From NCBI GenBank assembly GCA_035285865.1, contig JAYKHS010000011.1, positions 92,659-156,658 of the forward strand: 64,000 bases of DNA. Direction: 5' to 3'. The stretch comes from Candidatus Sericytochromatia bacterium. Lineage in GTDB: Bacteria; Cyanobacteriota; Sericytochromatia; S15B-MN24; VGJW01. The notes under the pieces were generated by a model. The model was given only the letters and a program-made list of their open reading frames with translations. It had not been told where the DNA came from and searched no databases. Positions 8,544 to 32,033 of this stretch are shown here, in pieces. Numbering within the stretch: position 1 is the stretch's first letter; every line of letters begins with the position of its first letter. The translations under genes and the position numbers were made by a program.

Positions 8544-8864
8544 CTAGCACGCACGACCAGCGAGGACGCGATCAAGCGCGGATCGCGCACAGGCCTCGAG
8601 GCCGGCCTCCCGGGCCGCGGCGAAAAGCTCGCCGCGAACGTGCGGACCGTAGGCGAGTACGCGCCACCCGGCATCACGGGCTGCGCAGGCGAGTTCGAGC
8701 GCGTTCGGTTCGAGCAGATCGACGATGAACCAAGAATTCTCCGATGAAGGGAGGCCGGCCGGTACCTCGTGCCAGTGCCTGGCATCCAGCCCCAGGCCAG
8801 CAGCCATGGCCTCGATGCGACCCAACTCGAAGTAGTCCCTACAGAGATGTGCCAACAAGGGCAT
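8544..8864 (-). CDS. hypothetical small protein immediately upstream of selD
   Basis: Start is the internal ATG 8862-8864 of ORF 8544..9071, with a GAGGAGA SD upstream. The stop lies 8 nt before the selD ATG. Sequence looks globular (FIVDLLEPNALELACAARDAGWRVLAYGPHV). No family recognised. Confidence 0.5.
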   Translation of the reverse strand: MPLLAHLCRDYFELGRIEAMAAGLGLDARHWHEVPAGLPSSENSWFIVDLLEPNALELACAARDAGWRVLAYGPHVRGELFAAAREAGLEACARSALDRVLAGRAC

Positions 8865-11157
8865 GCGTGCTCTCCTCGGCCGGCAGATCCAGCCACTGCT
8901 CTTCCGTTCGCGCCAGATGACGCGGCCGGATCGGATCGGGACACCACTGGATTGGCGGCAACAGCACGTGCCCACCCGAGCCCGCAGAGGCGTCCCAAAC
9001 CAGACGATGGCGGCCTGCGGTAACGTAAGGCAGGCGCACCTCGAAGCTGCCCGATGCCAACTGGCGCACAACCAGATGCCGCTGGCCGAGTCTGACCCGA
9101 GGTGCCCCGCCCCCGGTCCAGGAGGTCCAGAGCAGCCGACCAGCCGGCAATTTTCGCGTGACTTGCCACATCAGCTCCCCGGTGACGCGTCGGCCAGAAT
9201 ACCGAGGCGCATCGGCGTGGCGCAGGGAACCTTCAGGCAGTGGGGTCGCCGGTCGCGAGTCCCCCCGGACATCTGCCTGCCAGACTACCGTGAGGCTGCC
9301 CGAATCCCATCCAGGGGCGCTGCCGACCTCCAACACATGTCGCGCTGGCTTGAGGCGACTGCCGACCAACTGCCAATGACGAGCCCCTCGAGATGGTCGC
9401 CCCGGGCCAAGCGCAACGCCGTCGAGCCAGAGGCCAGGTGGGGCGGCACTCGCGGCCATTGCCGGCACTCGGGCCTGCAGGGCCGCGAGGGCGTTCAGCA
9501 CGGCAGCCGTCTGGACCGGTGTTTCCCAAGCCGGGCCAAGGCGCTGCTGGTCCAGCCAGCGGTAACCCGCAAGCAGGGCACCTGGCTCGACCCCGACGTC
9601 CAGCAGACCCTCCAGGGCCTCGGCCGTCACGGTCACCCCGCCATCCCAGTACAGGAGGCCCGAAGCATTACCCTTTCGACGCGTCCAGAGATGGCGCGCC
9701 GCCTGCGTCGCTCTCGGGTGGCCCCAGGCTTGGGCCGCGCGCAGCACATGCAGCAGGTCCTGTTCACGAGTCCCCTGCGGTGGCGGCCACGATGCGGCGA
9801 ACCACCCGGGCATAGGCACGCCTGAGACCGCAAGCACTTCGGCTTGCAAGGCTCGTCCGGCAAAGTCCCGAGGAGGTGAGGGGAACCGCGGAAGGACCGG
9901 CAACAGTGGCCCGACGAGCGGCTGCATCTGCCCACGGGCAACGGCCTCGAGCTCCCCGGGCTTCCAGCCTGGCGGCACCGTGCCGGGCCAACCTCGAGGC
10001 AAGTCGACCCATGGGAGACGGCGCTTCAATCGAGCAAGCTGCACCACCGTGGCTGCCCGAAGTTCCGGTGTCACCTCGTCAGCGCGAGCAAGCGCCCCGA
10101 GGGCTGGAAGGAAACCACCCCACGGATTCGCCGTAGCCAGTACCTCAAGGCGCAAGGAACCCGGAACGACATCCCCCGGAAAGGCCACCTCGACCCTGGA
10201 CGAACGTCCCGGCGGCAGAACCGCGCGACGTCCGAATCTGCGCCGCTGCCCCTCAACGCGCATCGAACGCTCGGATCGCCAGGACGGCAGCACCCCGTCA
10301 AGGCACCAGGCAAGTCGGTGCTCACCGGCCGCAAGCGCTGGAATCTCCAGGCTACCCGTCAGTCGGGCGAAAGGTGGAATCGTACAGAAGCTCGTGTCAG
10401 CAAGCGGATTAGACCGCAATTCGGCCCCGGCCATGCGAACCGACAGACGAAAGCGCGCGGGATCGGGCCCGGGATTGAGGACGGCCCAGGGCACCAGCGG
10501 GCGTTCCCCGTAACGCACGGCACGCGGTGCCCTGACCGTCACGGAGCAGGTCGCCGCATCCGGTGCTACGGACTTCACGTCTCGGACATCTCCGGCACCG
10601 GCAAACCAGCCCGGTCGAGACCAAGGCCAGCGAAGGACCTGTTCCACCTGACCGGCATCGGCAGAAGGGGGGACAGTGATGCGATCCTCAAGCTGCCCGG
10701 CCCTGAGGCGAAGGTCCCGCGCTCGGCTTGCAGGCGGCCAGGCGATTCGGCCGTCGCGAATCAGGACAACGCCACTTTCTCGCCCCGGAGGCTCGGTCCA
10801 CCACGCAAGCCCTGAGCCGACCGGGGTTCCGTCCACGCGACGCACCCACAAGCCTCCGACAGCAGGATGAACGCGCAAGGTTGCTGTCCGGCGCGCGTCG
10901 GCGCCGATTGGCCAGATTCCCGGGACTCCGGTACCCACCCAGTGCGAGCCGCCCTGCGATCGCAGCAGCTCCGTTCCGGTCGGCAAGCCCCTTAGCACCT
11001 GCCCGGAAAGGACACTCCGCGCGCGCGACTCCCACGACAAGGTGACCGTCTCGCGGGCGGACCATTCGGGAGCGGACGCGAACGCCCAAGTACCCGCCAC
11101 CGTCAGGACCAGAGGGATCACGGCGGCGGCTGGGCGATTGAGGGCTGACTTTGACAC
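8839..11157 (-). CDS. large secreted hypothetical protein (~770 aa)
   Basis: ORF 8839..11316. GTG 11155-11157 gives a canonical signal peptide, VSKSALNRPAAAVIPLVLTVAGTWAFA/SAPEW. Long beta-rich N-half and a helical-repeat-like C-half. No CxEQ thioester motif. The start is uncertain (the ORF maximum is 11316). Confidence 0.6.
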   Translation of the reverse strand: MSKSALNRPAAAVIPLVLTVAGTWAFASAPEWSARETVTLSWESRARSVLSGQVLRGLPTGTELLRSQGGSHWVGTGVPGIWPIGADARRTATLRVHPAVGGLWVRRVDGTPVGSGLAWWTEPPGRESGVVLIRDGRIAWPPASRARDLRLRAGQLEDRITVPPSADAGQVEQVLRWPWSRPGWFAGAGDVRDVKSVAPDAATCSVTVRAPRAVRYGERPLVPWAVLNPGPDPARFRLSVRMAGAELRSNPLADTSFCTIPPFARLTGSLEIPALAAGEHRLAWCLDGVLPSWRSERSMRVEGQRRRFGRRAVLPPGRSSRVEVAFPGDVVPGSLRLEVLATANPWGGFLPALGALARADEVTPELRAATVVQLARLKRRLPWVDLPRGWPGTVPPGWKPGELEAVARGQMQPLVGPLLPVLPRFPSPPRDFAGRALQAEVLAVSGVPMPGWFAASWPPPQGTREQDLLHVLRAAQAWGHPRATQAARHLWTRRKGNASGLLYWDGGVTVTAEALEGLLDVGVEPGALLAGYRWLDQQRLGPAWETPVQTAAVLNALAALQARVPAMAASAAPPGLWLDGVALGPGRPSRGARHWQLVGSRLKPARHVLEVGSAPGWDSGSLTVVWQADVRGDSRPATPLPEGSLRHADAPRYSGRRVTGELMWQVTRKLPAGRLLWTSWTGGGAPRVRLGQRHLVVRQLASGSFEVRLPYVTAGRHRLVWDASAGSGGHVLLPPIQWCPDPIRPRHLARTEEQWLDLPAEESTHALVGTSL

Positions 11158-11636
11158 GGCAGTGGCCAGGGACGCACCACCACCATCGTACGGGAAAGCG
11201 GAGACGATTGGCCCTGCGACCCGGATGCGTGATATCTGGCCTCGAACATCGTGAGTGGCCCGATGCGCCACTCCGTTCCCTCGGTCCAATGCAGCAACCG
11301 ATCGCCCTCGACCCACGCGTCACTCAGACCCGCTTCGGCGGGAGAATGCGACGTGCGACGAACAGCCCCATCCCAACAACCGAGCGCCTCGCCCAGCATG
11401 CCGACGGCACCAGTCGCATCCCCTTCGCCGACCAGCCAGAGTCGGTCGGCCCAACCGTCCACGGGACGACCGCGGGCGTCTCTGCCCGGGACGAAGAGTC
11501 GCCAACCGACAAGGCCCGGTAGCCGGAACTCCAGCACCGGCCACGGGTAGCCCGCAGGTGGGGGAGCCGCACCGACGCGCTCCTCCAGCACCTGGACAGG
11601 GGGGCCGGACACGACGACATGCGGTTCCGCTTGCAT
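11118..11636 (-). CDS. hypothetical protein, divergent from the kinase gene
   Basis: Internal ATG 11634-11636 of ORF 11118..11798. Its 3' end overlaps the next gene's signal-peptide region in another frame. No family recognised. Confidence 0.35.
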   Translation of the reverse strand: MQAEPHVVVSGPPVQVLEERVGAAPPPAGYPWPVLEFRLPGLVGWRLFVPGRDARGRPVDGWADRLWLVGEGDATGAVGMLGEALGCWDGAVRRTSHSPAEAGLSDAWVEGDRLLHWTEGTEWRIGPLTMFEARYHASGSQGQSSPLSRTMVVVRPWPLPCQSQPSIAQPPP

Positions 11637-11785
11637 GCCGCAATCGTGTTGCAAGTCCCGCAACCCGTGGACGGCCGTTCGGAACGAGGGGCCCTGTTCC
11701 CCTCCAACGTGGTTGAACCTTTGCCGCTCCGGGTAGGCCGTGCTAGGATGCCCACTGTTGGCCTTGTGCCATCCTCCACCCGTAG

Positions 11786-14700
11786 ATGATCGAGCCACTG
11801 CCCCACCGTTACCGGGTGATATCCACGCTCGGCCAAGGCGGCATGGGTGTGGTCTACCGGGCCGAAGACACCCAGGATGGCCGCGAGGTTGCGGTCAAGG
11901 TGCTGTCCGCGCCCGAAGACGACGGCGAGGCGCTGTTCGGTTTCCGGCAGGAGTTCCGTACGATGGCGCGCCTGCGTCATCCGCACGCCGTCGAGGTCTA
12001 CGACTTCGGCGAGACTCCCGGCGGCCAATCCTACTATTCGATGGAAGTCGTCGAAGGCAGGGGACTCGACGAGGTCCTGCCGATGCCGGCCGAGACCGTT
12101 CGAGACGTCCTGATTCAGGTGCTCAGGGTCCTGGGCTTCGTCCACGGCCAAGGCCAGGTCCATTGCGACATCAAGCCCGAGAACCTCAGGCTCCGCCATG
12201 ACGGTTCACTGAAGCTGATGGACTTCGGCCTGATGGTCGACGTGGGGTCCTCCGGCTCGACCATTCGCGGAACACTCGCCTACATGGCCCCGGAAGTCGC
12301 GCGTCGCGGCAAGCTTGATGGACGGGCCGACCTCTACTCGCTCGGGGCCGTGGCCTATCACCTGCTCACGGGGCAGGTGCCCTTCCCCGGCGACGACCCC
12401 GTGCTGGTCCTCAAGGCCCATCAGGATGAAGCGCCGCCCGCGCTGCCGGATGACGGAAGCGTCCCCGATGATCTCGTCCAGTTGGTTGATCGCCTCCTGC
12501 AGAAAGATCCACGCCATCGGCCGGCATCGGCTGCCGAAGCGCTCGCCGAGCTGGGCATCCAGACGGATGAGGAGCGCCGCACGCAACTGCTTGGCAGTCC
12601 GCTCGTCGGTCGCGCCACGGAGACTGCCGCCCTCCACGACGCCCTGGCGGGGCTGTCCGAAGGGCGGCCGGGTATCGTGACCATCACGGGCGAGCAGGGC
12701 ATGGGCAAGTCCCGCCTGATCGACGAATTCCGCTTCCACGTCCAGTTGGAAGGCATCACGTACGTGGCCGGCAGTGCCCAGGGCACTGCCGTCCCCTACG
12801 GTCCATTCGCCCAGGTTCTGCGGGCCCTCGTGCCCGTCGTCCCGGCCGGGCTGCTCGATGCCCATCGTGGGGTACTGGCGCGGCTCATGCCCAGCCTTGC
12901 GCTGGAGCGGACGGTGGAGCTCGATCCGGATGAAGAGCAGGTACGGCTGCGTGCGGCGTTCGCGGACCTTCTGGGTCACGCGGCCGAGCGCGGTGTGGTG
13001 CTTGTGCTTGATGACTGGCACGACGCGGACGAGCTGAGCCGCAAGATGCTGGACCACGTCCTGCGCAAGCTGGAGGACGGCCGATCGCTGGTGGTTCTGG
13101 GCGGTCAGCGGCTAGCGGTTCGCGGCAGCCTGCTGGAGCTCAAGGCACTGGATGCCGATGCAACGGGCGAGATGGTCCGGGCCATGCTCGGCACGAACCA
13201 GGTCGACGACGGGTTCGTCTCGGCGTTCCACCAGCTGACGGACGGTCATCCCCTCTTCGCCGAGGCTTCGCTCCATCTGCTTCTCGAGCAGGACCTCCTG
13301 GTCCGGCGCGACGGGGCGTGGACGACTCGGGAACCGCTCGCGGCCCGACACCTGCCCAGCAGCGTGCAGGACCTGCTCAAGGGACAACTGGCGAGCCTCG
13401 GGGCCGATGCCCGCGATCTGGTCCTCGTCATGGCCCTGCTGGGCGAACCGGTTTCGCTCGGCTTGCTGGCCAGGATCCTGAATCTTGACGGCGAATCTCT
13501 GCTCGAGCGCGTGGAGCCACTCCGCGGGCAAGGTATCGTGGGCCAGGATGGCGATACGCTGCGGTTCGTGCAAAGCCAGTACATCCCGCTGCTGCGCGAT
13601 GAGCATCGCGAAGGGGTGGCCGATTGGCACCAGCGCATCGCCGAAGCCTTGCTGCACCAGGCCGGTGGCGATCCCGAGGCCGTGCGGGAAGCCCGGATGG
13701 CAGGCCAGATGGCGCGACACTTCCTTGCCGCCGGTACGGATGCGCGCCGTGTGGTGATCGCCCTGGTAGCCGGCGAGGAGAATCTCAAGCTGTTCGCCCT
13801 GAGCGTGGCTCAGGAGTTTCTGATGGCAGGCCACGCCCTGCTGGGACCGGACAACGACGCCTTGTCGTTGCGTTACCTCTCGGCACTGGCCAATGTCGAG
13901 CGCTATCAGAACCTCACGGTAGAGGCCCTCGATCACGCCCGGCAGGCCTGCGTGCTGGCCGACCGACTCGAACGGCCGGCCGAGGCGGCCAATCTCTCCA
14001 CGTCCATGGCCGTCCTGCACCAGATTCGTGCGGAGTTCGACGAGGCCCTGGCGTGCGTGACACGGGCAGAAGAACTCGCCCAGAAGCACGGTCTCGTCAA
14101 GGAGTGGCTGCGGGCGCTCAAGACGGCCTCTCGTATCCATTACAAGCGGACCGACATCGTGCAGGCCATCGAGACCTGTCGCCGGGCGCTGCCTCTCGAG
14201 CACCTCGAGGGGGGGCCCCACGATGTCTCCGCGCACCAGGCCTTCCTGGGTTTCCTGCACGTGACGAACGAGGTGCCCGGTCTCACGACGCGGGAACGCA
14301 TCGATCTCGGGGTGCGGTACCTCGAGCAGGCAGCCACCTTCCGCCGGACCTCGGGCGACAGGGTCGGACTGGCTGACAGCTTGAACCTGCTGGGCAACGC
14401 CCTCTGGCAGTTAGGTCGATTTGCAGAAGCCACGACGGCCTTCCGCGAGAACCTCGAAGTCACCACCGAACTTGGGGTCACGAACGACGAGGTCTGCGCG
14501 CTGATCAACCTCGCCATTCAGGCTGAGGAACGGGGGCAAGCCGACCAACTTGTCTCTTGGGGACGCGACGCCCTGCGTCGGTCCGAAGAAATTCGCAGCG
14601 ACGACTATGCGTTCATTGCCGGCCACCTGCTGTCCCTGGGACTGGCCCTCGAGGGTCGTGTAGACGAGGCCTTGATCGTCCGTTCCCAGGCGGATGCCAT

Positions 14701-17170
14701 CCTTGATCGGGTCCCCGAAGGCGGGCGGATTTTCCTCGAACTGAACGTCCTGCCGTACGCGGCACAAGCCGACCTGGTCCTCGGTCGGACTTATGGGGCC
14801 CTCCAGGCGGCGAATCGGGCGTGGGAGCATACCGAGGCCACTGGCGTCCGCGAGTTCGAACAGCGAATTCTCGTGCTGCAGGGCGAGGCCTTGGTGCAGT
14901 TGGGAGAGGCAGCCGACGCCCTTGCTCTTTCGCGCCGCGCCAAGGCCATCGGCGAGGAGGTCGGCAGCCCCTCCACGGTGGCCCGTGCAGGCAGAGTCGA
15001 GGCCCAGGCGCTTTGGTCTCTCGGCGGGACCGACGAGGCGGTTGCCCTTCTGGAACCGGCGTGGACTGCTGCGGAAGCGTGCGGAGCAACGGGTGTTGCT
15101 CGGGATGTTGCCGAATTGGGCATCTCCCAGATGGTCGCACTTGGGGACCGCAAGGCCGCGAAACCGTGGCTGGACCGTTTGGAATCACTGGCCGATCTGC
15201 TGCCTGAGGCCGACGCGCAGGCGCGCCTGCAGATGGGCCGGGCAAGGGTTGCAGGGCGAAGCGAGGCCGGTGGCAAAGCTCTGGTTGCTGCTGCCCGATT
15301 GCTCGACGAACTGCTGGCCGGTCAGGATGCTGACCACGTCGAGGACTACATGTCCTTGGAGGTCCGCTGGGCCATCCGCCGGGGGGATCCGACCATCCCG
15401 GTCGTGCTGCGTGCCGACGAGGGGGTATCCGGGGCCGGTGGTGCCGATCTCCAGCGCCGTTACCTTCTGGCGCTCCAGGAAAATCGGACCCTGCAGACCG
15501 AACTCGAGAACGTGACACAGACCCGTGACCAGCTCGAGACGATCGTCGACTTCTCGCGAAAGACCAGTCTCGAGAACAATCTGAACGAGCTCCTGCACCA
15601 GATCATGGACCAGATCGGGAATCTGATCGGGGCCGACAGGGGCTTTCTGCTGTTGGCAGACAGGGATGCCGACGGCAACGTCTACCTGAGGCCCAAGGCC
15701 ACCTACAACATCTCCACTCAGGATCGTCGGCCCCAGACTTGGAAACGACCCGAGACCCTGGCCCGGACGGTCTTCGAGTCCGGACAAACCCTCTACATCG
15801 CCGATGTGCGCGACGGGACGGCCTCCGAAAGCACCCGGAGCGTGCTCGATCTCAATGTGCGGACCGTCCTATGCGTGCCCCTGCCCAGCCTTGATCTGTC
15901 GAACGGTTCATCGGGGCCCGCGATCGGTGTCATCTACTTGGACAGGCAGGCCATAAACAATGCTTTCCAGGAGCGGGACCTGAAGCTGGTGGAGACACTC
16001 GCCTTGCAGGCTTCGCAGGCCATAGACAAGGCTCGCCTCTACAGTTCCGTGACGGACAAGGCCCAGAAACTGGAGCACCTCAACGATCTCGCCAAGGTCG
16101 CCTCGACGACACTGGAGCTGCAGCGCGTTCTGGACGTCGTGGTGCGCAAGACCCTGCAGCATACCAATGCGGAACGCGCCTTCATCTTCCTCAAGGGCCC
16201 GGACGGGGGGCTGGTCTGCGAGCGAGCGATGAACAAGCAGGAGTTCGACATCCAGGACCAGCACGATCAGGTGTCCATGTCGGTCACGACCTCCGTCCTG
16301 CAGTCGGGAGAACCCGCCTGTCTCAGAGACACCCGAAACAATTCGGTCTTCCAGGCCCAGAAGTCGATTCTTGACCTCGACCTCAGGACCGTGATGTGCG
16401 TGCCTTTGCGCCGACCCCAGCCCCCCCAGCAAACCGTTCGCAAGCACGACCAGGACAAGCGGAACCGCATGGCTCCCATGGAGACGCGTGCACCGCGGGA
16501 AGAGTACGTCGGCGTGCTCTATGTAGACTCCAAGGTCGTTGTCGAGGAGTTCTCGGACAAGGATCTTGCCCTGCTGGAATCGATCGCCAGCCTGGCGTCT
16601 TCGGCCATCTACAACGCACAGATGTACAAGCGGGCGACGGAGGACGCGCTCACCGGCCTGTATTTCCGTTCGTACCTCGAGACCCGCATGGAGGAGGAAG
16701 CCCACAGGGCACAACGAACGGGTGGCGAGCTGTCCATTCTCCTTAGTGACATCGACCACTTCAAGCGCTTCAACGACACCTACGGCCACGCCGTAGGCGA
16801 CGACGTCCTGCGTCACGTGGCTCAGACCATCCGCAAGACCATCCGCGAGGACGACGTTGCCTCGCGATTCGGGGGAGAGGAGATGGTCGTGCTCATGCCG
16901 GATACGGGGCCTGCGGGTGCAGCCGTGCTGGCCGAGCGCCTTCGAGCCTCCATCGAGTCGAACCCGCTGCCCGGCTCGGACGGCGAACCGCTCAAGGTCA
17001 CGGTAAGCATTGGCCACGCCTCGCTCCAGCCCGGAGAAGAGCCCAAGCACATGCTGGAGCGGGCAGACCTCGCGATGTACCGTTCCAAGCATGGCGGCAG
17101 GAATCGCGTTTCGGCCGCTGAGGAGCAGAGCAGCGTCAGCGGCGACCCTGCCCCTCAGGGCCATGGCTGA
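11786..17170 (+). CDS. multidomain signalling protein: Ser/Thr protein kinase - AAA/STAND ATPase - TPR-like array - GAF - GAF - GGDEF diguanylate cyclase
   Basis: Kinase motifs: GQGGMGVVY, VAVK, HCDIKPEN, DFG, APE. Walker A is GEQGMGKS (aa 302-309) and Walker B is VLVLDDWHDAD. A helical repeat region of about 550 aa follows, then two GAF-like blocks. The C-terminus is GGDEF with RFGGEEM (16871-16885) and an upstream REDD I-site-like motif. Confidence 0.9.
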   Translation: MIEPLPHRYRVISTLGQGGMGVVYRAEDTQDGREVAVKVLSAPEDDGEALFGFRQEFRTMARLRHPHAVEVYDFGETPGGQSYYSMEVVEGRGLDEVLPMPAETVRDVLIQVLRVLGFVHGQGQVHCDIKPENLRLRHDGSLKLMDFGLMVDVGSSGSTIRGTLAYMAPEVARRGKLDGRADLYSLGAVAYHLLTGQVPFPGDDPVLVLKAHQDEAPPALPDDGSVPDDLVQLVDRLLQKDPRHRPASAAEALAELGIQTDEERRTQLLGSPLVGRATETAALHDALAGLSEGRPGIVTITGEQGMGKSRLIDEFRFHVQLEGITYVAGSAQGTAVPYGPFAQVLRALVPVVPAGLLDAHRGVLARLMPSLALERTVELDPDEEQVRLRAAFADLLGHAAERGVVLVLDDWHDADELSRKMLDHVLRKLEDGRSLVVLGGQRLAVRGSLLELKALDADATGEMVRAMLGTNQVDDGFVSAFHQLTDGHPLFAEASLHLLLEQDLLVRRDGAWTTREPLAARHLPSSVQDLLKGQLASLGADARDLVLVMALLGEPVSLGLLARILNLDGESLLERVEPLRGQGIVGQDGDTLRFVQSQYIPLLRDEHREGVADWHQRIAEALLHQAGGDPEAVREARMAGQMARHFLAAGTDARRVVIALVAGEENLKLFALSVAQEFLMAGHALLGPDNDALSLRYLSALANVERYQNLTVEALDHARQACVLADRLERPAEAANLSTSMAVLHQIRAEFDEALACVTRAEELAQKHGLVKEWLRALKTASRIHYKRTDIVQAIETCRRALPLEHLEGGPHDVSAHQAFLGFLHVTNEVPGLTTRERIDLGVRYLEQAATFRRTSGDRVGLADSLNLLGNALWQLGRFAEATTAFRENLEVTTELGVTNDEVCALINLAIQAEERGQADQLVSWGRDALRRSEEIRSDDYAFIAGHLLSLGLALEGRVDEALIVRSQADAILDRVPEGGRIFLELNVLPYAAQADLVLGRTYGALQAANRAWEHTEATGVREFEQRILVLQGEALVQLGEAADALALSRRAKAIGEEVGSPSTVARAGRVEAQALWSLGGTDEAVALLEPAWTAAEACGATGVARDVAELGISQMVALGDRKAAKPWLDRLESLADLLPEADAQARLQMGRARVAGRSEAGGKALVAAARLLDELLAGQDADHVEDYMSLEVRWAIRRGDPTIPVVLRADEGVSGAGGADLQRRYLLALQENRTLQTELENVTQTRDQLETIVDFSRKTSLENNLNELLHQIMDQIGNLIGADRGFLLLADRDADGNVYLRPKATYNISTQDRRPQTWKRPETLARTVFESGQTLYIADVRDGTASESTRSVLDLNVRTVLCVPLPSLDLSNGSSGPAIGVIYLDRQAINNAFQERDLKLVETLALQASQAIDKARLYSSVTDKAQKLEHLNDLAKVASTTLELQRVLDVVVRKTLQHTNAERAFIFLKGPDGGLVCERAMNKQEFDIQDQHDQVSMSVTTSVLQSGEPACLRDTRNNSVFQAQKSILDLDLRTVMCVPLRRPQPPQQTVRKHDQDKRNRMAPMETRAPREEYVGVLYVDSKVVVEEFSDKDLALLESIASLASSAIYNAQMYKRATEDALTGLYFRSYLETRMEEEAHRAQRTGGELSILLSDIDHFKRFNDTYGHAVGDDVLRHVAQTIRKTIREDDVASRFGGEEMVVLMPDTGPAGAAVLAERLRASIESNPLPGSDGEPLKVTVSIGHASLQPGEEPKHMLERADLAMYRSKHGGRNRVSAAEEQSSVSGDPAPQGHG

Positions 17171-17269
17171 CGCATAGTCCTATCGGCCGGTCTGTTCCCT
17201 GCCCTGTGGTTTTGACTTGTACCTCGCGGGGCAATTTTCCGTTGGGTCCATCTCTGTCGAGGTCATCGC

Positions 17270-19489: not shown

Positions 19490-19496
19490 GGTGACC

Positions 19497-21728: not shown

Positions 21729-21729
21729 A

Positions 21730-24081: not shown

Positions 24082-25934
24082 TCCAGGAGGTGGCCAGACA
24101 GCGGGTCGGCCTGAAGCAGGCGACCATCCCCAAGCGGCATCAAGGACGTAGGCCTGCCCAGGCGCACCGCCAAGGCCGGAAGGGGAATCTCCCCCGGCGT
24201 CAGGGGAATTCCGGTCACCAGCCCTTCGCCTGCCAACTGCCTGAAGCCGGCATCGGGGCTCCAGCGCCACAGCCGCGCTCGCGCCACCTCCGCCAGCAGC
24301 AGGGAATCGCCGAGCCACGCCATGGCCCGCACTTCACCGGAAGGAGCTGCAAGGGCGCGCCGATCCACGACTTGCCAATCCGAACTGCCTTCCGACCTGA
24401 GCCAGATGGCGCCCGGACCTGCAACAGCAACCTGGCCCAACCGCCCCACGGCCACGGACTCCGCACGGCTACCCGGGGGCAGGGATAGCAAGGTACGCCC
24501 ACCTTCGTCGCGCAAGTGGCCTGCCTCTGACATGATCAGCAGCCCATCGGGCCGGACGGCAAATGCATCGATGCTCCCTCGGGCAACTTCCCGGGAAGTG
24601 CCATCGGACCACTGGAAGCGGCGCAGGACATCAGCACCCGGGCCGGTGCGCCCGAGAACAAGGACCTGCCCTCTGGAATCGACGGCAATGGAGCGCGGTC
24701 GATCGACGTGCCAGGGCAGAGTCTGCCATAGGCCCTCGGGAGAGCGATGCAGGCAGCGAGCACCGAGATGATCCCCCACGAGCCAACCACCATCGGGAGC
24801 GAGGGAAAGGGCATAGGGCGTCACGCCCGCCGGCAGGACAGGCAAGCGACGAAGCCGGGCATCGTCAATCAGAACGGACGCCGTAGCCACGAGCGACCCC
24901 CCGGTGACCACGAAATCCAGACGATCGAAACCTGCTTCGGTGCGACGCGTACGTACGATGGCCGCATCCTCGAGCATCGCTCGATAGCCGTCATCGGCCT
25001 CACCTTCCACTTGAGCCTGGGGAATGGACCCGTGGGGGACCACGGAAGGCAAGCCGACAAGGCGGAGTGCCCGCATGCGATGCCAGAAAATGCCGAGACC
25101 CTCGACACCGTCGCGGATGACACGCACAGGACCGGACACGGCCTCCTCAGGGACACGTACCTCCCAGAGACCGTCCGCCACCTGGCGTGGGGCCACGGCC
25201 TCGGCGCCGGTGAATCGAATCGTGAAACCGCCCTGAATCCGGGGATCGACCGCGACGGACAGGATATCCCCGGGACTGCTGAAAGCCGGGGAAAGGGCAA
25301 GCAGGGGAACTTCCTCCGGACGCACAGGGATCTGGAGATTGGATGCGTCCGTGGCACTCGGATTCCAGAGGGCGACTCCCGTGAAACCGGTCCCGCGTAC
25401 CCGGATACGCCTTACACCTGCAGGCATGCCATCGATCCTGAACCCACCTTCAGAATCAGCCCACCCGATGCGCGGGAGACCCTCGACTTCAATCCGGGAG
25501 CCAATCGCTCGCGGCAATTCCGGAGGAACCTGAAGGCGACCGGACAGTGTCAGGGCAGCCTCCCACATCGGGGTTGCCATCCTCGTGACACCGGCACTCC
25601 AATGGAATCCCGTGCTTCCCGTGACCCAGTCACGGCCCTCGAGCTGCACCAGCAGCAAATCCGCCCTGCCGAAGGGCAACGCCCTGCCCGGAAGTGCAGG
25701 AAGGGATTCAGGCATCCCGAGCGTGCGGCCCGAGGAATCCAGCGCCACCCAATGGAGCGTGATCCGGTCCTCGGGCAGTCCGGGATAGCCAAGGTCCTCG
25801 GGGAGAATGACGGAAGCAATTGCGGACTCCACGTCACGGCCCCGGTCCTGAACACCGGCCACGCCGAGCTCCTGTTGGAAGCACCCGGCGAGCAGGGCCC
25901 CGGACAGAAGAACGTATCTCTCGAGGGCTGACAC
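24069..25934 (-). CDS. lipoprotein D: CarboxypepD_reg-like + IPT/TIG-like + beta-propeller
   Basis: GTG start lies 1 nt after the upstream gene stop. Lipobox LLAGC. Motifs: SEGGFRIDGMPAGVRRIRV, and IPT-like SPGDILSVAV...SGPVRVIRDG. It overlaps the start of lipoprotein C by 13 nt. Confidence 0.8.
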   Translation of the reverse strand: MSALERYVLLSGALLAGCFQQELGVAGVQDRGRDVESAIASVILPEDLGYPGLPEDRITLHWVALDSSGRTLGMPESLPALPGRALPFGRADLLLVQLEGRDWVTGSTGFHWSAGVTRMATPMWEAALTLSGRLQVPPELPRAIGSRIEVEGLPRIGWADSEGGFRIDGMPAGVRRIRVRGTGFTGVALWNPSATDASNLQIPVRPEEVPLLALSPAFSSPGDILSVAVDPRIQGGFTIRFTGAEAVAPRQVADGLWEVRVPEEAVSGPVRVIRDGVEGLGIFWHRMRALRLVGLPSVVPHGSIPQAQVEGEADDGYRAMLEDAAIVRTRRTEAGFDRLDFVVTGGSLVATASVLIDDARLRRLPVLPAGVTPYALSLAPDGGWLVGDHLGARCLHRSPEGLWQTLPWHVDRPRSIAVDSRGQVLVLGRTGPGADVLRRFQWSDGTSREVARGSIDAFAVRPDGLLIMSEAGHLRDEGGRTLLSLPPGSRAESVAVGRLGQVAVAGPGAIWLRSEGSSDWQVVDRRALAAPSGEVRAMAWLGDSLLLAEVARARLWRWSPDAGFRQLAGEGLVTGIPLTPGEIPLPALAVRLGRPTSLMPLGDGRLLQADPLSGHLLEWLP

Positions 25935-25935
25935 G

Positions 25936-27435
25936 TCAGGGGGCGGTCTTGACCCGCCTGACCCGATTGGCAGAGAAATCCGTAATCAGGATATCGCCCG
26001 TCGCATCCACGGCGAGGTAGGTCGGAAGAGCGAGTCGCCCTGCAGCAAGGGGCACGGGTCCATCAGGCTCGGTGGCAGGTCCCGGTCCGGCAAGGCGGTG
26101 AACGAGGCCCGTGTTCCTGTCGAACAGACGAAGGCGGGCGAGTGTGGGCTCGAGGAAGACAAGATGACCCTCCGGAGTCACGGCCATGGAGCTGGCCTTG
26201 AACACGCTGGCTTGAAGGCCCGGCAGGCCATCGCCCTGATCCACCTGGCTCTTGACGTCGGTGCTGGCGCTATAAGGGGTACGAGGCCCCTCGCCAATCA
26301 TCGGATACACCCGACCGGCTGTCCGCCGACCACCAAAGCCCTCGATGTCCTGAAGGCAAACCAGCATGATCCTCGCGACACTCAAGGACTGGGTGGTGCT
26401 GTCCTGTTGCGTCAGCAGCTGGGTGGACACCTCACTGAACCAGACATTGCCGTCGGGATCCACGTGTGGCGCTGACGGCCCGGCAATCGGTGCCTCCGCC
26501 AGCAGCGCACCCTCCTCACCAATCAGTCCGGTTGCCGAACCGCTCCCTGCAAGGACGACCACGGCCCCATCGAGATTCAGGCGATAGAGGTACCGATGGG
26601 CGGTAATGCTCGCCTTGTTCTGATTGACGACCGTGAAGACAAGCGTCCCATCCGGGGCGGCTGAAAGGCCATTGGGCTTGCCCAACTCGGCAGGCAGGGG
26701 GACCACATGCGCCTTGCCCGCCTCGAGGTCCAGACCATAGGCACGACCCGATGCAACGGGCATCAGCAGAAGCTGGCCGGACCCGTCGACAACCCACACG
26801 GAACCATCGGGGGAAACGGCCACCTCGGCAGGAACCGCGGAAGCCGTCGTGCCCAGAAGGCGGACTTCAGCCTGATTGACCGGCACTCCTGGTGCCGCAG
26901 GCGTTCCGGGCACCTGACCCGCCCAAGTCGCTGCCACTCCGTGATCGTCGACACGGATGACACCGTGGCCACGGTCAAGAACCAGCCCTCGACCATCCGG
27001 CAGAAAGGCCACATTCGTCGGTTTGCTCAGGTAGGCAGAAGCCACTGGCAGACCATCGCCCAGCATCCCGCCCGGGGCATCCGCCGCCCCGTTCTCGATA
27101 CCGCTGCCGAAGCCGGCCGCCACGGTCCAGAATGCAGCCGGCGCCCACGCCTGCTGCCTGGCCGGGGCGACCGCCGGAGTGGGGCCAGGTGTAGGCTCAG
27201 GCGTTGCTGCCGGGGTAGGTTCGGGAGTCGGCACCGGGCTAGGGGTAGACTCAGGCGTTGGTGCCGAGGAAGGCTCGGGAGACATGGACGCAGACGCCAC
27301 GCCCGATGCCGACGGCACCGACGTTGCCTGAGCAAGGGTGGTGATCCGCTGCAGCAGCGCCCCGTCCGAGCACGCGACCAGCACGGCAAGCGCCAAGGGC
27401 GCAGCGATGAAAGTTACCGAACCAAATTTACGCAT
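25936..27435 (-). CDS. lipoprotein E: Pro/Thr/Ser-rich linker + NHL-type beta-propeller
   Basis: Start is the internal ATG 27433-27435, giving MRKFGSVTFIAAPLALAVLVAC (lipobox). The linker reads PEPSSAPTPESTPSPVPTPEPTPAATPEPTPGPTP. Blades include ILITDFSANRVRRV and VWFSEVSTQ. Confidence 0.8.
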   Translation of the reverse strand: MRKFGSVTFIAAPLALAVLVACSDGALLQRITTLAQATSVPSASGVASASMSPEPSSAPTPESTPSPVPTPEPTPAATPEPTPGPTPAVAPARQQAWAPAAFWTVAAGFGSGIENGAADAPGGMLGDGLPVASAYLSKPTNVAFLPDGRGLVLDRGHGVIRVDDHGVAATWAGQVPGTPAAPGVPVNQAEVRLLGTTASAVPAEVAVSPDGSVWVVDGSGQLLLMPVASGRAYGLDLEAGKAHVVPLPAELGKPNGLSAAPDGTLVFTVVNQNKASITAHRYLYRLNLDGAVVVLAGSGSATGLIGEEGALLAEAPIAGPSAPHVDPDGNVWFSEVSTQLLTQQDSTTQSLSVARIMLVCLQDIEGFGGRRTAGRVYPMIGEGPRTPYSASTDVKSQVDQGDGLPGLQASVFKASSMAVTPEGHLVFLEPTLARLRLFDRNTGLVHRLAGPGPATEPDGPVPLAAGRLALPTYLAVDATGDILITDFSANRVRRVKTAP

Positions 27436-27528
27436 TATAAAAAAGTGTAACAGATGGCAACACACCGGACGGGCGACATGACACGCATCCGCCAGCTTGA
27501 TCTACAGGTCAAATAATGTCATACTGAT

Positions 27529-29190
27529 ATGAGATACCATGCTGAGCTGGACTTGAGCAGTACCGCCACGGGGATTCATTTGTCTCCGATTGACATCATC
27601 CCGCTGGGGCCCTTGCTGGCTGTCGGCTCCTTGGGTTTGGCAATTCTTGTTGCCGTGGACGAGTTGCCTGCATCCCCGGTCAATCTCGGGACCCTTCGGC
27701 ATCTTGCAGAGCAAGCGCTCCGGCGTCACTTCTCTGCTGGCATCAGAGTTCACGGACCCAACCTGCATTCGGCATCCGAGTGGTCCTGGCTCGGGACCAC
27801 GATTGCCGAGCTTGCCGCGGAAACCGTGCAAGTTGCGAGCGACGGCCGCGAGGCAGGCTCGACCGCTGACTTCTCCATCGTGAAGATTGCCGATTCGAAG
27901 GCCACGCTCTGGCCTGATCATCCGCTGGCGCAACCGCAAGACGACCAAGGATGGCAGCAGTTCAGCGACACCGCCGTGCGGCTCACACGACTCGGAGCGT
28001 GGGCGGAATCGCTCGGCGATACGCGATGCCTTGATGAAGTCATTGCAATCTGGCGCTTGCATCCGCCAGCGGCGACCAACAACGAGCTCATGCCGCTGAT
28101 TGCAGCAAGGCGGGAACTCGCGTGCGGCAATCCTGCCGAAGCGTGGGAAATGCTGGACCGGTGGCAGCCCAGCGCACGGGCAGTACGTCGCAGCCGCTGG
28201 CTGGCCATGGTCAAAATCCTGGAGTTCCTTGGTGACTATCAGGCTGCGAGTGGCCTCCTCGACCTCGCCGAACGCCTGTCGGACCCCAAGGACTGGGAGG
28301 TCCGGGCACACAGGGCAGTCCTGCAACTCAGGCTCGGCCACCTGGATGATCTGGCTGCATCCCCGTTGCCCGACGACAACGCCGAGCGTATCCCCGACAC
28401 CGTTGAATCGGCGATGTGGGCGTCGACTGTCGGCATCGCATGTTTCCGCCTCGGACGCTACCGGAACGCCATCGCGTGGCATCAATTGGCTCTGTCGGTC
28501 AGGAATCGGCTCGGGGACCTTGTTGCCGTGGCGAGAAGCTGGAACAACATCGGCAATGTCCACATCGAGTCCGGTGCCTTTGATGAAGCGCGCGAGGCCT
28601 TTGAAATGGCCGAGTCCCTGCTCGCGCAAGCGGGAGAAGTCGTGCTCAGAGCGACGGTAGCCAACAATCTTGGCAGCCTGCTGCTCCTCACTGAACGATT
28701 CGACGAAGCCAGAACAACCGTTTCACGCGCTTTCGATCTCAAGGAGGCCTCTGGCGAAGCACCAGGGCGCGCAATCGCCCAAGCGACTTTGGCGGCCATC
28801 GAGCTCGGTGCAGGCAATCTTGAGGAAGCGAGGAGGTATCTCTGGGACGCTCGCATCACGATTGAATCCTGTGGGCTTGAAGAGAACTTGCCGGATGTCG
28901 GGATTCTGGATGCAGAGCTCGCGCTGGCAGAAGGCGCCCATGAAAGGGCTGGCAAACTGCTTCTGGATCTACTTGCATGCGTCGAGGCGAGTCGACCGAC
29001 GTTGTTGCCTCGCATCCATCGGGGGCTGGCCCGGGTCGCACACGAGATGAGCCAGCACTCAAGGACCGACCACCATCTGTTTCAGGCCCTGCGCGCATCA
29101 GGGAACAGCGAGCGCCGCCACGAGCACTCGCGAACGCTTGCGCTTGCCGCGAAGCTCGGACGTCCCCTCGAGGACGCAGATGGCGCATGA
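27529..29190 (+). CDS. membrane-anchored TPR-repeat protein
   Basis: N-terminal TM segment IIPLGPLLAVGSLGLAILVAV. C-terminal TPR-like repeats include WNNIGNVHIESGAFDEAREAFEMAESL and NNLGSLLLLTERFDEARTTVSRAF. Confidence 0.7.
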   Translation: MRYHAELDLSSTATGIHLSPIDIIPLGPLLAVGSLGLAILVAVDELPASPVNLGTLRHLAEQALRRHFSAGIRVHGPNLHSASEWSWLGTTIAELAAETVQVASDGREAGSTADFSIVKIADSKATLWPDHPLAQPQDDQGWQQFSDTAVRLTRLGAWAESLGDTRCLDEVIAIWRLHPPAATNNELMPLIAARRELACGNPAEAWEMLDRWQPSARAVRRSRWLAMVKILEFLGDYQAASGLLDLAERLSDPKDWEVRAHRAVLQLRLGHLDDLAASPLPDDNAERIPDTVESAMWASTVGIACFRLGRYRNAIAWHQLALSVRNRLGDLVAVARSWNNIGNVHIESGAFDEAREAFEMAESLLAQAGEVVLRATVANNLGSLLLLTERFDEARTTVSRAFDLKEASGEAPGRAIAQATLAAIELGAGNLEEARRYLWDARITIESCGLEENLPDVGILDAELALAEGAHERAGKLLLDLLACVEASRPTLLPRIHRGLARVAHEMSQHSRTDHHLFQALRASGNSERRHEHSRTLALAAKLGRPLEDADGA

Positions 29191-30734
29191 TGAACGGCTT
29201 TGACCTCCGGGACGGAGTCTTCCTTGCCTCCCTCTTGCGGCATCTGGAAAGCGATAGCTGGCAAGAGGCCGCGTGGTTCCAAGACGTCGCGGAGATCACG
29301 CAGGCCGAAGCGGCGCACTACGATGCGTCCGGGGACCTCCGGCTCGTTTCCGTCCCCCGAGGCGACGGGGCCAACACGAGTCAGCTCCCCATCCCAGCCT
29401 CACTTCCGGTCGGGTCCGATGCCTGGTGCATCTTGCCGTTGGATCAGGGTGAGTACCTTGCGGTGGCGACACGAAGCCCAATGGGAGAGGGCATGCACGC
29501 TGCCATCAGAGTCATGGTGGCCCTCCGTCGGCAGGCCTTGGCGGGACGGCCGGAACCGCAGTTGCCTGATGCCCCTTGGGCTCAGGCAGGTCGGCTGCTG
29601 TCGCGGGGACGGTTCGACTCACTCGGCCTGACGCCTCTGCTGGTCTTGGCATGCAGAACGCTTGGTGCGGTGGATGTCCTGGTCCTGTCTTCGACGGAGG
29701 AAAATCGTCTTGATGTCGTTGCCCGCGCCGGTGGTGCGGAGGCAACGTTAGCGGAGGCACCGACCACCACCACCGGACGCACGGCCTGGGTGGACAGCCT
29801 GCTGGACTCGGCGCGTGTGCGCTTCACGCGGGGGGCCAGTGCCATCGAAAGAGAGTTGCCAGGCCTTGAATGCCTCGGCCAGGTCGGTCTCACCCTCTGG
29901 CATCCCCTGAGGCGCCGCGGAAGCCATGTTGGCATGGTGCTCGTCATCTGGGATGACGAGGCCGAACTGGACAGTATCCGCAGTCGATGGCTGGGGAGCC
30001 TCGCAGACCTGCTACAACTGCTATTCGAGCACTCGGCCATATCTCGGGAACTGCAACATACCCGCCTGACCGTCAGGCAGCATGAGTCGAGAACCGGCGA
30101 GGATCAGGCCTTCGTCAAGCAGTTGCTTCACGACTTGCGCAACGAAGTGCACGCGCTGGCGCTCCTCGCGGACGATATGCATCAACTGGCAACCCAGCAA
30201 GCCGAAGTCGAGACGACGGAGAGCCTGGTGCGGCAGGTTCGATGCATGTCAGGTTACCTTGGCCAGGTCGGTCGCAATTGGCAGGATGGTCGGGCGTGGA
30301 ACGAATCCGCCGGCTTGCAGGTGGCCGACATCTTGAGCAGAGCCCTCCAGATGGAACCCGCGCTTCAAATGGTCACGACGGATGATGCCCAGTCAGTCGA
30401 GCTCCTTTGTCCGCGTACTGTTGCGAACGATCTCGTCGCGGTCCTCCTGCAAGCGATGGAATCCATCGCACCGGGACACAAGCCGCGCCTCTCGACCCTG
30501 CTTACGGCAGGGTGGCTGACACTTGCCGTCGACACACCGGATCTGCAACTCGCCGCTCATCCGTCGGGAATCGTGCGCTTGTCTCCACGGCATTTCGGGA
30601 TGGCCGCAGCAGAGGCCATCTCCATGGTCGAAGACCTCTGCGTTGCGCACGGCTTCCAGTTCGGTGTCCGCTTGCATCCAGGACATCCACCCCGCCTGCA
30701 TGCCTCGGTACGCACGGAGTCGTGGGGCCAGTAA
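29187..30734 (+). CDS. GAF-like sensor protein with HisKA H-box and a degenerate HATPase-like C-terminus (pseudo-histidine kinase?)
   Basis: The ATG overlaps the upstream stop (ATGA). H-box-like FVKQLLHDLRNEVHAL. I could find no N, G1 or G2 ATP-binding boxes in the last ~150 aa. Confidence 0.65.
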   Translation: MMNGFDLRDGVFLASLLRHLESDSWQEAAWFQDVAEITQAEAAHYDASGDLRLVSVPRGDGANTSQLPIPASLPVGSDAWCILPLDQGEYLAVATRSPMGEGMHAAIRVMVALRRQALAGRPEPQLPDAPWAQAGRLLSRGRFDSLGLTPLLVLACRTLGAVDVLVLSSTEENRLDVVARAGGAEATLAEAPTTTTGRTAWVDSLLDSARVRFTRGASAIERELPGLECLGQVGLTLWHPLRRRGSHVGMVLVIWDDEAELDSIRSRWLGSLADLLQLLFEHSAISRELQHTRLTVRQHESRTGEDQAFVKQLLHDLRNEVHALALLADDMHQLATQQAEVETTESLVRQVRCMSGYLGQVGRNWQDGRAWNESAGLQVADILSRALQMEPALQMVTTDDAQSVELLCPRTVANDLVAVLLQAMESIAPGHKPRLSTLLTAGWLTLAVDTPDLQLAAHPSGIVRLSPRHFGMAAAEAISMVEDLCVAHGFQFGVRLHPGHPPRLHASVRTESWGQ

Positions 30735-30788
30735 TCACATCGGATGCCGGCTTGTCCGCCGGGCTTGCTGCGGGGTAGGATGCCCGCC

Positions 30789-32033
30789 ATGACTCCAAAG
30801 GAAGCCGCCGAAGCCCGGATCGGCCGTGCGGAGGAACGCCTCGAGGACACCTTCAGGGCCATTCGCGCCACGGAATGGGCCAACACCCGAAGAGTCCTGG
30901 AGGCCTTTCAGGCCGCACGTGTCGGTGAAGAACACTTTGCCGGGACAACGGGCTATGGCCATGACGACCTCGGCAGGGAGTGTCTGGACACCGTCATGGC
31001 CACGGTCCTGGGTTCTGAGGCTTCCCTTGTACGAGGCAGCATCGCCTCCGGTACTCATGCCATTGCCTTGGCGCTCTACGGTGCGCTTGCACCGGGCCGA
31101 GAGTTGCTATACATCACGGGACACCCCTACGACACGCTGGAGGAAGTCATCGGCCTTCGGGGAGGCGGGCAAGGCTCCTTGATGGAGTGGGGTGTCGGCT
31201 ATCGGGAGATCGATCTGCTGCCGGACGGCCAGATAGACCTCGCTGGCTGCCTCGCGGCCATTTCGGACAAGACTGCTGTCGTGGCGATCCAGCGTAGCCG
31301 GGGTTATGCATGGAGGCCGTCCCAGTCCATTTCGCGGATTGAAGAAGCCATCAGCACGCTACGGAAAGCCCACCCGCATCTGGTCTTCTTCGTCGACAAC
31401 TGCTACGGCGAATTCGTCGAAGACCGCGAGCCAACCCACGTCGGAGCCGATCTCATCGCGGGTTCGCTCATCAAGAACCCGGGGGCCGGCATCGTGCCAG
31501 CGGGTGGTTATGTGGCGGGCAGGGCCGATCTGGTGCACCGAGCGGCCTGCCGACTTACCGCCCCGGGAATAGGTGCAGCCGGCGGAGCGACGCTGGATTC
31601 GCTCCGGCTCATGTTCCAGGGACTCTTTCTGGCTCCCCACGTGGTTGCCGAAGCCGTCATGGGTGGAGTTCTCGCTGCTGCGGTCCTCGAGGAGATGGGG
31701 CATTCCGTCGATCCGGCTCCCACGGATCTGCGCACCGACATCATCCAGGCGGTACGGCTCGGCTCGGCGGAACGCCTCGTGACCTTCTGCCAGACCGTGC
31801 AGCGTACCTCGCCCATCCACGCGCACGTCACCCCGGAGCCCGCAGTTGTTCCGGGCTACGCCGATCATGTGGTGATGGCCGCGGGAACGTTCATCGAAGG
31901 CTCCACCATCGAGCTCTCGTGTGACGGCCCCTTGCGTCCACCCTACGTCGCGTACTGGCAGGGAGGGCTCAGCTACGGCCATGCACGAGAAGCCTTGGTT
32001 CGCGTGTGCAAAGCTCTGGACCAGTTGGCATGA
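30789..32033 (+). CDS. methionine gamma-lyase family / aluminium-resistance (YnbB-like) PLP enzyme
   Basis: Family-typical N-terminus ...VLEAFQAARVGEEHFAGTTGYGHDDLGRECLD...ASGTHAI, plus ...SLIKNPGAGI. Alternative ATGs lie at 30744 and 30780. Confidence 0.8.
   Translation: MTPKEAAEARIGRAEERLEDTFRAIRATEWANTRRVLEAFQAARVGEEHFAGTTGYGHDDLGRECLDTVMATVLGSEASLVRGSIASGTHAIALALYGALAPGRELLYITGHPYDTLEEVIGLRGGGQGSLMEWGVGYREIDLLPDGQIDLAGCLAAISDKTAVVAIQRSRGYAWRPSQSISRIEEAISTLRKAHPHLVFFVDNCYGEFVEDREPTHVGADLIAGSLIKNPGAGIVPAGGYVAGRADLVHRAACRLTAPGIGAAGGATLDSLRLMFQGLFLAPHVVAEAVMGGVLAAAVLEEMGHSVDPAPTDLRTDIIQAVRLGSAERLVTFCQTVQRTSPIHAHVTPEPAVVPGYADHVVMAAGTFIEGSTIELSCDGPLRPPYVAYWQGGLSYGHAREALVRVCKALDQLA

Follow-up and report, generated by a model that had tools for sequence, protein, structure and literature searches.

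Does an unbroken run of signalling and envelope genes in a bacterial genome represent one functional system, or do its parts owe their proximity to separate histories? The question is raised by a 64,000-nt stretch of DNA from Candidatus Sericytochromatia bacterium (assembly GCA_035285865.1, contig JAYKHS010000011.1; the whole stretch is termed the window, and all coordinates refer to it). An initial annotation had described a ~20-kb block within it as a single candidate system, consisting of the gene of a giant kinase-cyclase protein (the giant gene), five lipoprotein genes (LpA to LpE in order of position) and a gene pair encoding a TPR protein and a relative of histidine kinases (the kinase-like protein). 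According to gene order, domain content, motif states and phyletic pattern, the interval is probably not one system but a neighbourhood particular to this lineage, in which three transcription units lie side by side; the giant gene, LpA and LpB (the trio) are the only part of it whose linkage outlasts deeper divergence, and they constitute the only candidate for a functional core, a putative, undescribed operon with a presumed function.

The giant gene was confirmed as one open reading frame (ORF) with the predicted domain series. Pfam domains were located at residues 9-253 (Pkinase), 272-437 (AAA_16) and ~705-934 (TPR/TPR_MalT), followed in the C-terminal half by two GAF stretches (best 1265-1413) and a GGDEF domain (1618-1774). 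The kinase domain (PF00069, 157.9 bits) is of the Hanks-type Ser/Thr class with all motifs intact by eye (GQGGMG, VAVK, HCD, DFG, APE), the HCD marking a non-RD kinase; the AAA_16 domain (PF13191, 93.6 bits versus 32.6) contains Walker A (GEQGMGKS) and Walker B (VLVLDD) motifs and, together with the repeat domain (TPR_12, 46 bits), places the protein among the STAND NTPases. The GGDEF domain scored 150.1 bits with PF00990 (cut-off 23.8) and 176 bits with TIGR00254 (cut-off 37.4); its motif RFGGEEM keeps the GGEE core with Met in place of Phe, and an RxxD inhibitory site (I-site, REDD) is positioned five residues upstream; the domain is a putative, apparently active cyclase. Hydropathy analysis revealed no membrane segment. 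The overall prediction is a STAND Ser/Thr kinase that is soluble and PknK-like, fused to tandem GAF domains and a GGDEF cyclase. This architecture is common in the Sericytochromatia group: 60 relatives were found at E ≤ 1e-100, most of them ~1600-1850 amino acids (aa) long with the same domains, and the orthologues match in length and architecture.

Directly after the giant gene follow the five lipobox proteins that had been reported, two encoded on the plus and three on the minus strand and meeting stop to stop (the convergent stop codons of LpB, 21726-21728, and LpC, 21730-21732, are separated by 1 nt). An N-terminal hydrophobic stretch ending in a lipobox cysteine was recognized in all five by pattern inspection only, and the Cys-containing lipobox is present in every orthologue examined; the proteins are thus predicted lipoproteins of presumed envelope location. 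LpA comprises an octapeptide-repeat stretch, a beta-sandwich region, a helical region and a C-terminal NHL propeller, its profile matching the NHL domains of NHLRC2, SOQ1, Pizza and PknD in the Protein Data Bank (PDB); LpB has an N-terminal beta-rich region, a helical region and an NHL propeller (best E 1.7e-26 against PDB profiles), and only six full-length homologues of it were found in 5.8 billion clusters. Both proteins are paralogous over ~490 columns (hhalign 99.1%). The possibility that all five lipoproteins are paralogues was rejected by profile comparisons, LpA and LpB being the only related members. The octapeptide, L[VI][AS]N[GN]AAG in 4-6 copies, occurs in every LpA orthologue despite ~30% overall identity, reading LVSNNAAG (four to five copies) in the distant ones (L007 7323-7442, L008 15964-16059, L013 8000-8095; L001-L019 are labels for related loci compared with the window); it may form a stalk or spacer element, and a literature search found no mention of the motif.

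All named homologues of the block belong to Candidatus Sericytochromatia or to related uncultured 'Cyanobacteria' metagenome-assembled genomes (MAGs), the others deriving mostly from JGI, ENA and Logan metagenome assemblies; the giant protein also has a few weaker matches beyond the group. The comparison of synteny and co-occurrence that had been proposed for the block gave a divided answer. The full nine-gene order is kept in the close relatives (L005, L012/L015/L016, L002, L003, L001/L006), the giant protein being 97% (L005), 84% (L012/L015/L016) and 77% (L001/L006) identical; in L003 and L004, LpB is 74-80% identical and the contigs stop before the giant gene. The whole block, however, was confined to genomes whose flanks are likewise collinear: the AIR-synthase-family gene (68% identity in L006), an 825-aa ORF, a small ORF and a PF06838 gene (81-83% identity in close relatives) accompany it, the latter three also in L012/L015. 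Since the flanks are equally collinear, conservation of the block in the close clade is indistinguishable from plain relatedness.

The deeper relatives are more informative with respect to linkage. In three lineages with a giant protein of ~47-48% identity (L007, L008/L009, L013/L014), giant gene, LpA and LpB are retained in co-orientation and at close spacing, with lipoboxes and octapeptide repeat kept at an identity of just 27-38% (LpA) and 32-34% (LpB), whereas no LpC, LpD, LpE, TPR gene or kinase-like gene occurs within 7-10 kb downstream. Each of these lineages has its own genes beyond LpB, and homologues of the small flank genes of L008 and L013 are found in the window at 6597-6842 and 8562-8720 in other order and orientation; the surroundings have been rearranged around an intact trio. 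Every LpB homologue with enough context lies two genes downstream of a giant-gene orthologue. At still greater distance (L010/L011 and L019, giant protein ~39%), the same chromosomal context contains no lipoprotein genes: behind the giant gene lie the two small minus-strand genes that come after the trio in L008 and L013, with dihydroorotate-dehydrogenase-like and aminotransferase genes next in L019. In consequence, the giant gene is regarded as the ancestral resident of the locus and the lipoprotein genes as accessory; LpC, LpD and LpE, confined to the close clade, look like recent additions. Of the single system claimed for the block, the part that stood is therefore the giant gene-LpA-LpB unit, and the 20-kb nine-gene whole did not.

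The presence of giant genes without lipoprotein genes also bears on an explanation that dispenses with function altogether, namely that fast-evolving lipoprotein genes gathered at a permissive spot and that the trio has been kept by inertia and read-through. It would account for the giant gene as a positional orthologue existing without them, for the absence of LpA/LpB from one further lineage (L018, see below), for the lineage-specific genes after LpB, for a neighbourhood partly common to all lineages, and for the far faster evolution of the lipoproteins (47-60% versus 77% identity of the giant protein in L001/L006). We consider it unlikely, if still worth serious attention, as it leaves the order, orientation and short spacing of the trio at ~30% LpA/LpB identity unexplained where neighbours are inverted or replaced, as well as the constant adjacency of LpB homologues to giant-gene orthologues. 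Furthermore, the ratios of nonsynonymous to synonymous substitution rates (dN/dS; Table), obtained from a single pairwise comparison of the window with the 97%-identical strain L005, indicate clear purifying selection on LpA and LpB. By these values all genes are under purifying selection and functional, with constraint loosening toward the degenerate TPR/kinase-like pair.

For the favoured reading, i.e. three adjacent units with the trio as core, the following mechanism is proposed. Unit 1 (plus strand) would consist of giant gene, LpA and LpB, which are probably co-transcribed: LpA begins 99 nt after the stop of the giant gene, and a pattern scan found no terminator-like hairpin in this gap. 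The lipoproteins would consequently be made when the giant protein is made. The latter most likely integrates cytoplasmic cues (STAND nucleotide state, GAF ligands, phosphorylation) into the synthesis of cyclic diguanosine monophosphate (c-di-GMP), with product inhibition acting via its I-site. Since it contains no membrane segment, LpA and LpB are likelier co-expressed envelope components than its sensors, and the simplest model is that envelope proteins are co-expressed with an integrator that produces c-di-GMP. Unit 2 (minus strand) would run from LpE through LpD to LpC and encode mutually unrelated envelope lipoproteins; unit 3 (plus strand) would comprise the TPR gene, the kinase-like gene, the PF06838 gene and a NUDIX gene called downstream in L005.

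Several observations weigh against this reading. In L018, the fourth lineage of the ~47-48% tier, whose giant protein shares 77% identity with its L013 counterpart, LpA and LpB are missing after the giant gene and a homologue of the L013 post-LpB gene is located directly 3' of it, which demonstrates that the trio itself can be dispensed with or relocated. A shared loose neighbourhood persists in the deeper relatives (the small flank genes mentioned above; the AIR-synthase-family gene in the window and in L018), and residual synteny could explain part of the persistence of the trio. The sample amounts to only about eight lineages, all metagenome-assembled; an LpA profile scan of a genome collection and an LpB profile scan of metagenomes yielded just one and three loci, respectively, too few to enlarge it. 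Family scans of the block gave no c-di-GMP effector (PilZ or other receptor) and no adhesin, secretion or S-layer component that would tie the cyclase to the lipoproteins, and a promoter/terminator consensus scan detected nothing in the intergenic region between LpE and the TPR gene and performed overall no better than on shuffled sequences. Finally, the AlphaFold2 (AF2) model of LpB is poor (predicted local distance difference test, pLDDT, 44.8; alignment of six sequences), and the beta-rich LpD matches CarboxypepD_reg and NHL only below threshold.

The pair following the lipoprotein genes was described as a membrane-anchored TPR protein translationally coupled to a GAF-HisKA protein without ATP-binding boxes, and the features behind this description were confirmed. 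The TPR protein possesses a single strong hydrophobic segment (residues 21-48, hydropathy 2.27) that is kept in L012 and L003, and the TGA of its gene overlaps the ATG of the kinase-like gene as ATGA (29187-29190), consistent with translational coupling. The kinase-like protein alone has no Pfam, NCBIfam or PDB match (no HATPase_c even at E 10), and only 11 relatives were found among 1.84 billion representative proteins; as a family, however, HATPase_c is matched in 8/11 members, GAF and HisKA in several, and the family profile matches solved histidine kinases including DivL (4q20) and RetS (6dk7). The H-box HDLRN is invariant in the 11-member alignment (HDLRNEVHAL in the window protein, the N-terminal part of which is GAF-like). 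In contrast, the window protein reads LLQAMES, DTPDL and FGMAAA at the positions where active members have NLLDNA, DxGPG and GxGL; with the N, G1 and G2 boxes gone in this protein and its nearest relatives, it should not be classed as an active kinase. Lacking the usual ATP binding, it could serve as phosphoacceptor, phosphatase or scaffold.

A counterpart of the pair in L018 suggests its origin. There, an AAA_16-TPR gene overlaps one that encodes a kinase-like family member of full length (hhalign 100%) ~6 kb upstream of the giant gene, adjoining the AIR-synthase-family gene and thus on the opposite side of the giant gene compared with the window. The TPR protein of the window shares 32% identity over 363 aa with this 734-aa AAA_16-TPR protein, covering the C-terminal two-thirds of the latter, and looks like a truncated relative of a STAND protein. 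In L018 (25-3851) the family member is partnered by the STAND protein with its NTPase domain; the partner in the window clade is the 553-aa protein, in which the N-terminal hydrophobic segment takes the place of the NTPase. Degeneration seems to affect both proteins at once; the pair may represent a degenerate descendant of a STAND-TPR and GAF-histidine-kinase pair lingering near the giant gene. By analogy with RcbAB of Vibrio vulnificus, a bicistronic pair in which a TPR protein de-represses a TPR-GGDEF cyclase (PMC12282931), the TPR protein might touch the TPR region of the giant protein. A more specific proposal builds on this contact: the trio would be an undescribed c-di-GMP-linked envelope module of Sericytochromatia in which the cytoplasmic STAND kinase-cyclase would govern production, export or display of LpA and LpB as a heteromeric pair, one of the two borne by an octapeptide-repeat stalk (L[VI][AS]N[GN]AAG)n, and the TPR/kinase-like pair would be a dedicated modulator acting by TPR-TPR contact; so detailed a scheme is judged doubtful.

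The broadest interpretation, that of the initial annotation, takes all nine genes as one surface module, with the kinase-cyclase setting c-di-GMP, the five lipoproteins as output and the TPR/kinase-like pair as modulator. Besides the order kept in all close relatives, it can draw on the proximity of the pair to the giant gene (within ~6-10 kb, in spite of rearrangement, in L018 as well as the window clade), on a block content solely of signalling and envelope proteins and on the precedent of TPR-TPR control of a cyclase in RcbAB (PMC12282931). As had been stated, no enzyme or transporter genes are contained within 11786-30734. The module is nevertheless difficult to reconcile with the equally collinear housekeeping flanks, with the absence of LpC-LpE beside the trio in three deeper lineages (LpC having no homologues beyond the close clade), with giant genes free of lipoprotein genes in L010, L019 and L018, and with the extension of the unit holding the pair into an enzyme gene. 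In addition, synonymous divergence (dS) from the conspecific strain L005 is 0.24-0.36 for giant gene, LpA and LpB compared with 0.03-0.08 for the genes from LpC to the kinase-like gene (~five-fold), and nucleotide identity (alignment 13421-33763) rises from ~86-94% over the giant gene, LpA and most of LpB to ~96-99% from ~20.9 kb, the step falling within LpB near 20.4-20.9 kb. Although a single pairwise comparison, it points to a recombination breakpoint in LpB and to two halves with different histories. One nine-gene module is therefore regarded as improbable.

The domain content of the lipoproteins was only partly as annotated. CarboxypepD_reg-like modules had been named for these proteins; the domain is above threshold in LpC (Pfam, 38.4 bits versus 32.3), and sub-threshold in LpA (E 0.045) and LpD (E 0.019). 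Moreover, a 380-aa CarboxypepD_reg protein encoded elsewhere in the window (56224-57366, minus strand, ahead of an RND efflux operon) shows that the domain is not specific to the block. IPT/TIG-like modules were not borne out by sequence (E 0.9 against PDB 5e7g) and are suggested only at the fold level by Ig-like sandwiches in the LpC model. NHL propellers were recovered in LpA, LpB and LpE, the C-terminal parts of which match propellers of solved structures (profiles, E 1e-12 to 1e-26), and in the LpC model, and were not established for LpD, which weakly resembles the last blades of LpC. LpE is supported by Pfam NHL as well (28.8 bits, cut-off 20) and contains a Pro/Thr/Ser-rich linker. Automatic calls of LpE in L005, L012 and L002 start 65-105 codons downstream and lose the lipoprotein signal peptide (window 25936-27465); on the other strand, the same calls add a spurious ORF of 67-84 aa.

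Neither the LpC nor the LpD profile has significant sequence matches in the PDB, and only four LpC homologues, all of the close clade, were found in 5.8 billion protein clusters. The AF2 model of LpC, of medium confidence (pLDDT 61), comprises CarboxypepD_reg, further Ig-like sandwiches and an NHL-type propeller; its best Foldseek matches are teneurin, the filamin-NHL part of Lin41, Bacteroides Ig-plus-propeller lipoproteins, TRIM NHL domains and PknD, with template modelling (TM) scores to NHL domains of 0.65-0.73 on the target. Within a low-confidence linker (residues ~85-118, ~23740-23830), three copies of a nine-residue unit, DG[AS]LQSTP[LM], are present, its residues invariant across all five LpC sequences. 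The matches to the Bacteroides proteins 4hw6, 3tc9, 3hrp and 3kya would be compatible with ligand- or nutrient-binding surface proteins independent of c-di-GMP, similar to the auxiliary nutrient-binding lipoproteins of Bacteroides, all the more as NHL propellers often bind ligands (e.g. the PknD sensor, 1rwi). However, these fold matches are generic to Ig plus NHL, teneurin and TRIM proteins scoring equally or better; the confidence of the model is only moderate, and no SusC/SusD-like transporter, glycoside hydrolase or uptake gene is found in or beside the block, so that such a role is considered quite improbable. Likewise, an anti-phage defence island around the STAND kinase, a class of NTPases common in defence systems, can be rejected as highly improbable: the PADLOC models PD-T4-6, mad6 and MkoA match only the generic kinase domain of the giant protein (residues ~5-265), the TPR protein has one weak match to the generic TPR-repeat model and the other seven proteins none, no nuclease or other effector is present, and the giant gene is a conserved positional orthologue (dN/dS 0.06) in housekeeping context.

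Compared with known systems, the giant protein is closest in layout to STAND kinases of the PknK type (Mycobacterium tuberculosis PknK; MalT/AfsR-like), with which it shares the kinase-AAA_16-MalT-like TPR order and the soluble state; the layout of PknK itself matches its kinase-AAA_16-TPR part. Unlike in that type, the TPR repeats lead into two GAF domains and GGDEF, which makes c-di-GMP the predicted output, and two lipoprotein genes lie downstream. With PleD/DgcA-type cyclases it has the GGEE core and the RxxD five residues upstream in common, but differs in the Met for Phe and in its kinase-STAND-TPR-GAF input in place of receiver or PAS domains, its cyclase activity being putative. M. tuberculosis PknD (1rwi) offers another parallel in that a Ser/Thr kinase is likewise linked genetically to NHL propellers, and the propellers of LpA, LpB and LpC match 1rwi and the Pizza proteins, which are designs derived from the PknD propeller. 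In PknD, however, the propeller is fused to the kinase via a membrane helix; since the window kinase lacks any membrane segment and the propellers belong to lipoproteins of their own, direct sensing in the manner of PknD is impossible.

The kinase-like protein resembles degenerate histidine kinases of the DivL/RetS type in its DHp phosphoacceptor motif and the loss of ATP-binding boxes. DivL has no phosphoacceptor histidine; the window protein differs from it by the retained His, the GAF-like N-terminal part, the coupling to a TPR gene and the lack of a response regulator nearby. The Bacteroides lipoproteins BT_3476 (3tc9), BACOVA_00264 (4hw6) and 3hrp combine Ig-like domains with an NHL-like propeller as does the LpC model. 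These proteins lie in polysaccharide-utilization loci with SusC/D, which are absent from the window block, and identity is only ~10-13%. As in RcbAB, a separate TPR protein gene is present near a TPR-bearing cyclase; in contrast to it, the window gene is ~10 kb away, belongs to another unit and is coupled to the kinase-like gene, and any interaction is purely conjectural. Apart from this loose mechanistic precedent, nothing directly relevant was found in the literature on Sericytochromatia cyclases and kinase-GGDEF fusions.

Table. Features of the block and its flanks (dN/dS: window versus L005).
Feature	Position	Strand	Basis	dN/dS
825-aa ORF, one hydrophobic segment	8839-11316	-	ORF map, family scans	
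Small conserved ORF, ~138 aa, domainless, between 825-aa ORF and giant gene	11121-11534	-	tblastn, translation	
Giant gene, 1794 aa	11786-17170	+	Pfam, NCBIfam, motifs, hydropathy	0.056
LpA, lipobox LAGC	17270-19489	+	Conserved lipobox, profile versus PDB	0.09
Tandem repeat in LpA, period 24 bp, 5.8 copies, (L[VI]ANGAAG) x6	17528-17671	+	Tandem Repeats Finder (TRF)	
LpB, lipobox TSAC	19497-21728	+	Conserved lipobox, profile versus PDB	0.16
LpC, lipobox LAAC	21730-24081	-	Pfam, AF2 model, Foldseek	0.22
LpD, lipobox LAGC	24069-25934	-	Conserved lipobox	0.31
LpE, lipobox LVAC	25936-27435	-	Pfam NHL, profile versus PDB, conserved lipobox	0.29
A+T-rich divergent intergenic region LpE/TPR gene, 93 bp	27436-27528	.	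Sequence	
TPR protein gene, 553 aa	27529-29190	+	Pfam TPR_12 and related, hydropathy	0.22
Kinase-like (histidine-kinase relative) gene	29187-30734	+	Family alignment, profile versus PDB	0.54
PF06838 (Met_gamma_lyase family) enzyme gene	30744-32033	+	Pfam E 2.9e-175	0.055

The borders of the block had to be redrawn (Table). The left border had been set at 11118; this position marks the stop codon of the small ORF on the minus strand and lies outside the giant gene. The product of the small ORF is 47% identical over 139 aa to a 138-aa product of L012 (tblastn). The ORF overlaps the annotated 5' end of the 825-aa ORF, whose real start is probably further downstream than annotated. The 825-aa ORF has no match in Pfam, NCBIfam or PADLOC and is conserved (43% identity in L006, 48% in L015); a weak profile match (hhalign 54%) to a 769-aa ORF upstream of the L008 giant gene spans a Y-W-D...R-W-L...W-E-T-P region and is only suggestive of homology. 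The minus-strand genes LpE, LpD and LpC overlap or abut, the 3' end of LpD overlapping the start of LpC by 13 nt, and the A+T-rich region between LpE and the TPR gene is the presumed promoter site of both divergent units. On the right, the PF06838 enzyme gene begins 9 nt past the kinase-like gene on the same strand, at the same position in L005, L012 and L015, and probably belongs to the same transcript; the right border of the block is therefore arbitrary. An exact look-up of the PF06838 gene product returned no record.

Elsewhere in the window, the G+C content of which is 63-68%, an RND efflux operon and the 380-aa CarboxypepD_reg protein preceding it were located at 50511-57366 (minus strand; outer-membrane factor 54755-56227, membrane-fusion protein 53676-54758, AcrB-type pump 50511-53672). 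The region 40595-50430 encodes aconitase and a full 2-oxoglutarate dehydrogenase set (E1 47659-50430, E2 46439-47833, E3 45039-46436). To our knowledge classical cyanobacteria lack this complex, and the set therefore fits a non-photosynthetic relative.

The main outcome is the correction of an over-extended inference: a conspicuous 20-kb run of genes for signalling proteins and lipoproteins splits into units of unequal evolutionary depth, which cautions against inferring gene clusters from a single genome. The components belong to known, ordinary domain types; the operon predicted from them is undescribed and narrowly distributed, and its only support is the order of genes in about eight MAG lineages. 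The Sericytochromatia are uncultured, non-photosynthetic relatives of the cyanobacteria, and their signalling and envelope have barely been studied. If the trio is a functional unit, a kinase/STAND/c-di-GMP integrator would be tied to a defined pair of envelope proteins, which would provide an entry point to surface behaviour in this group.

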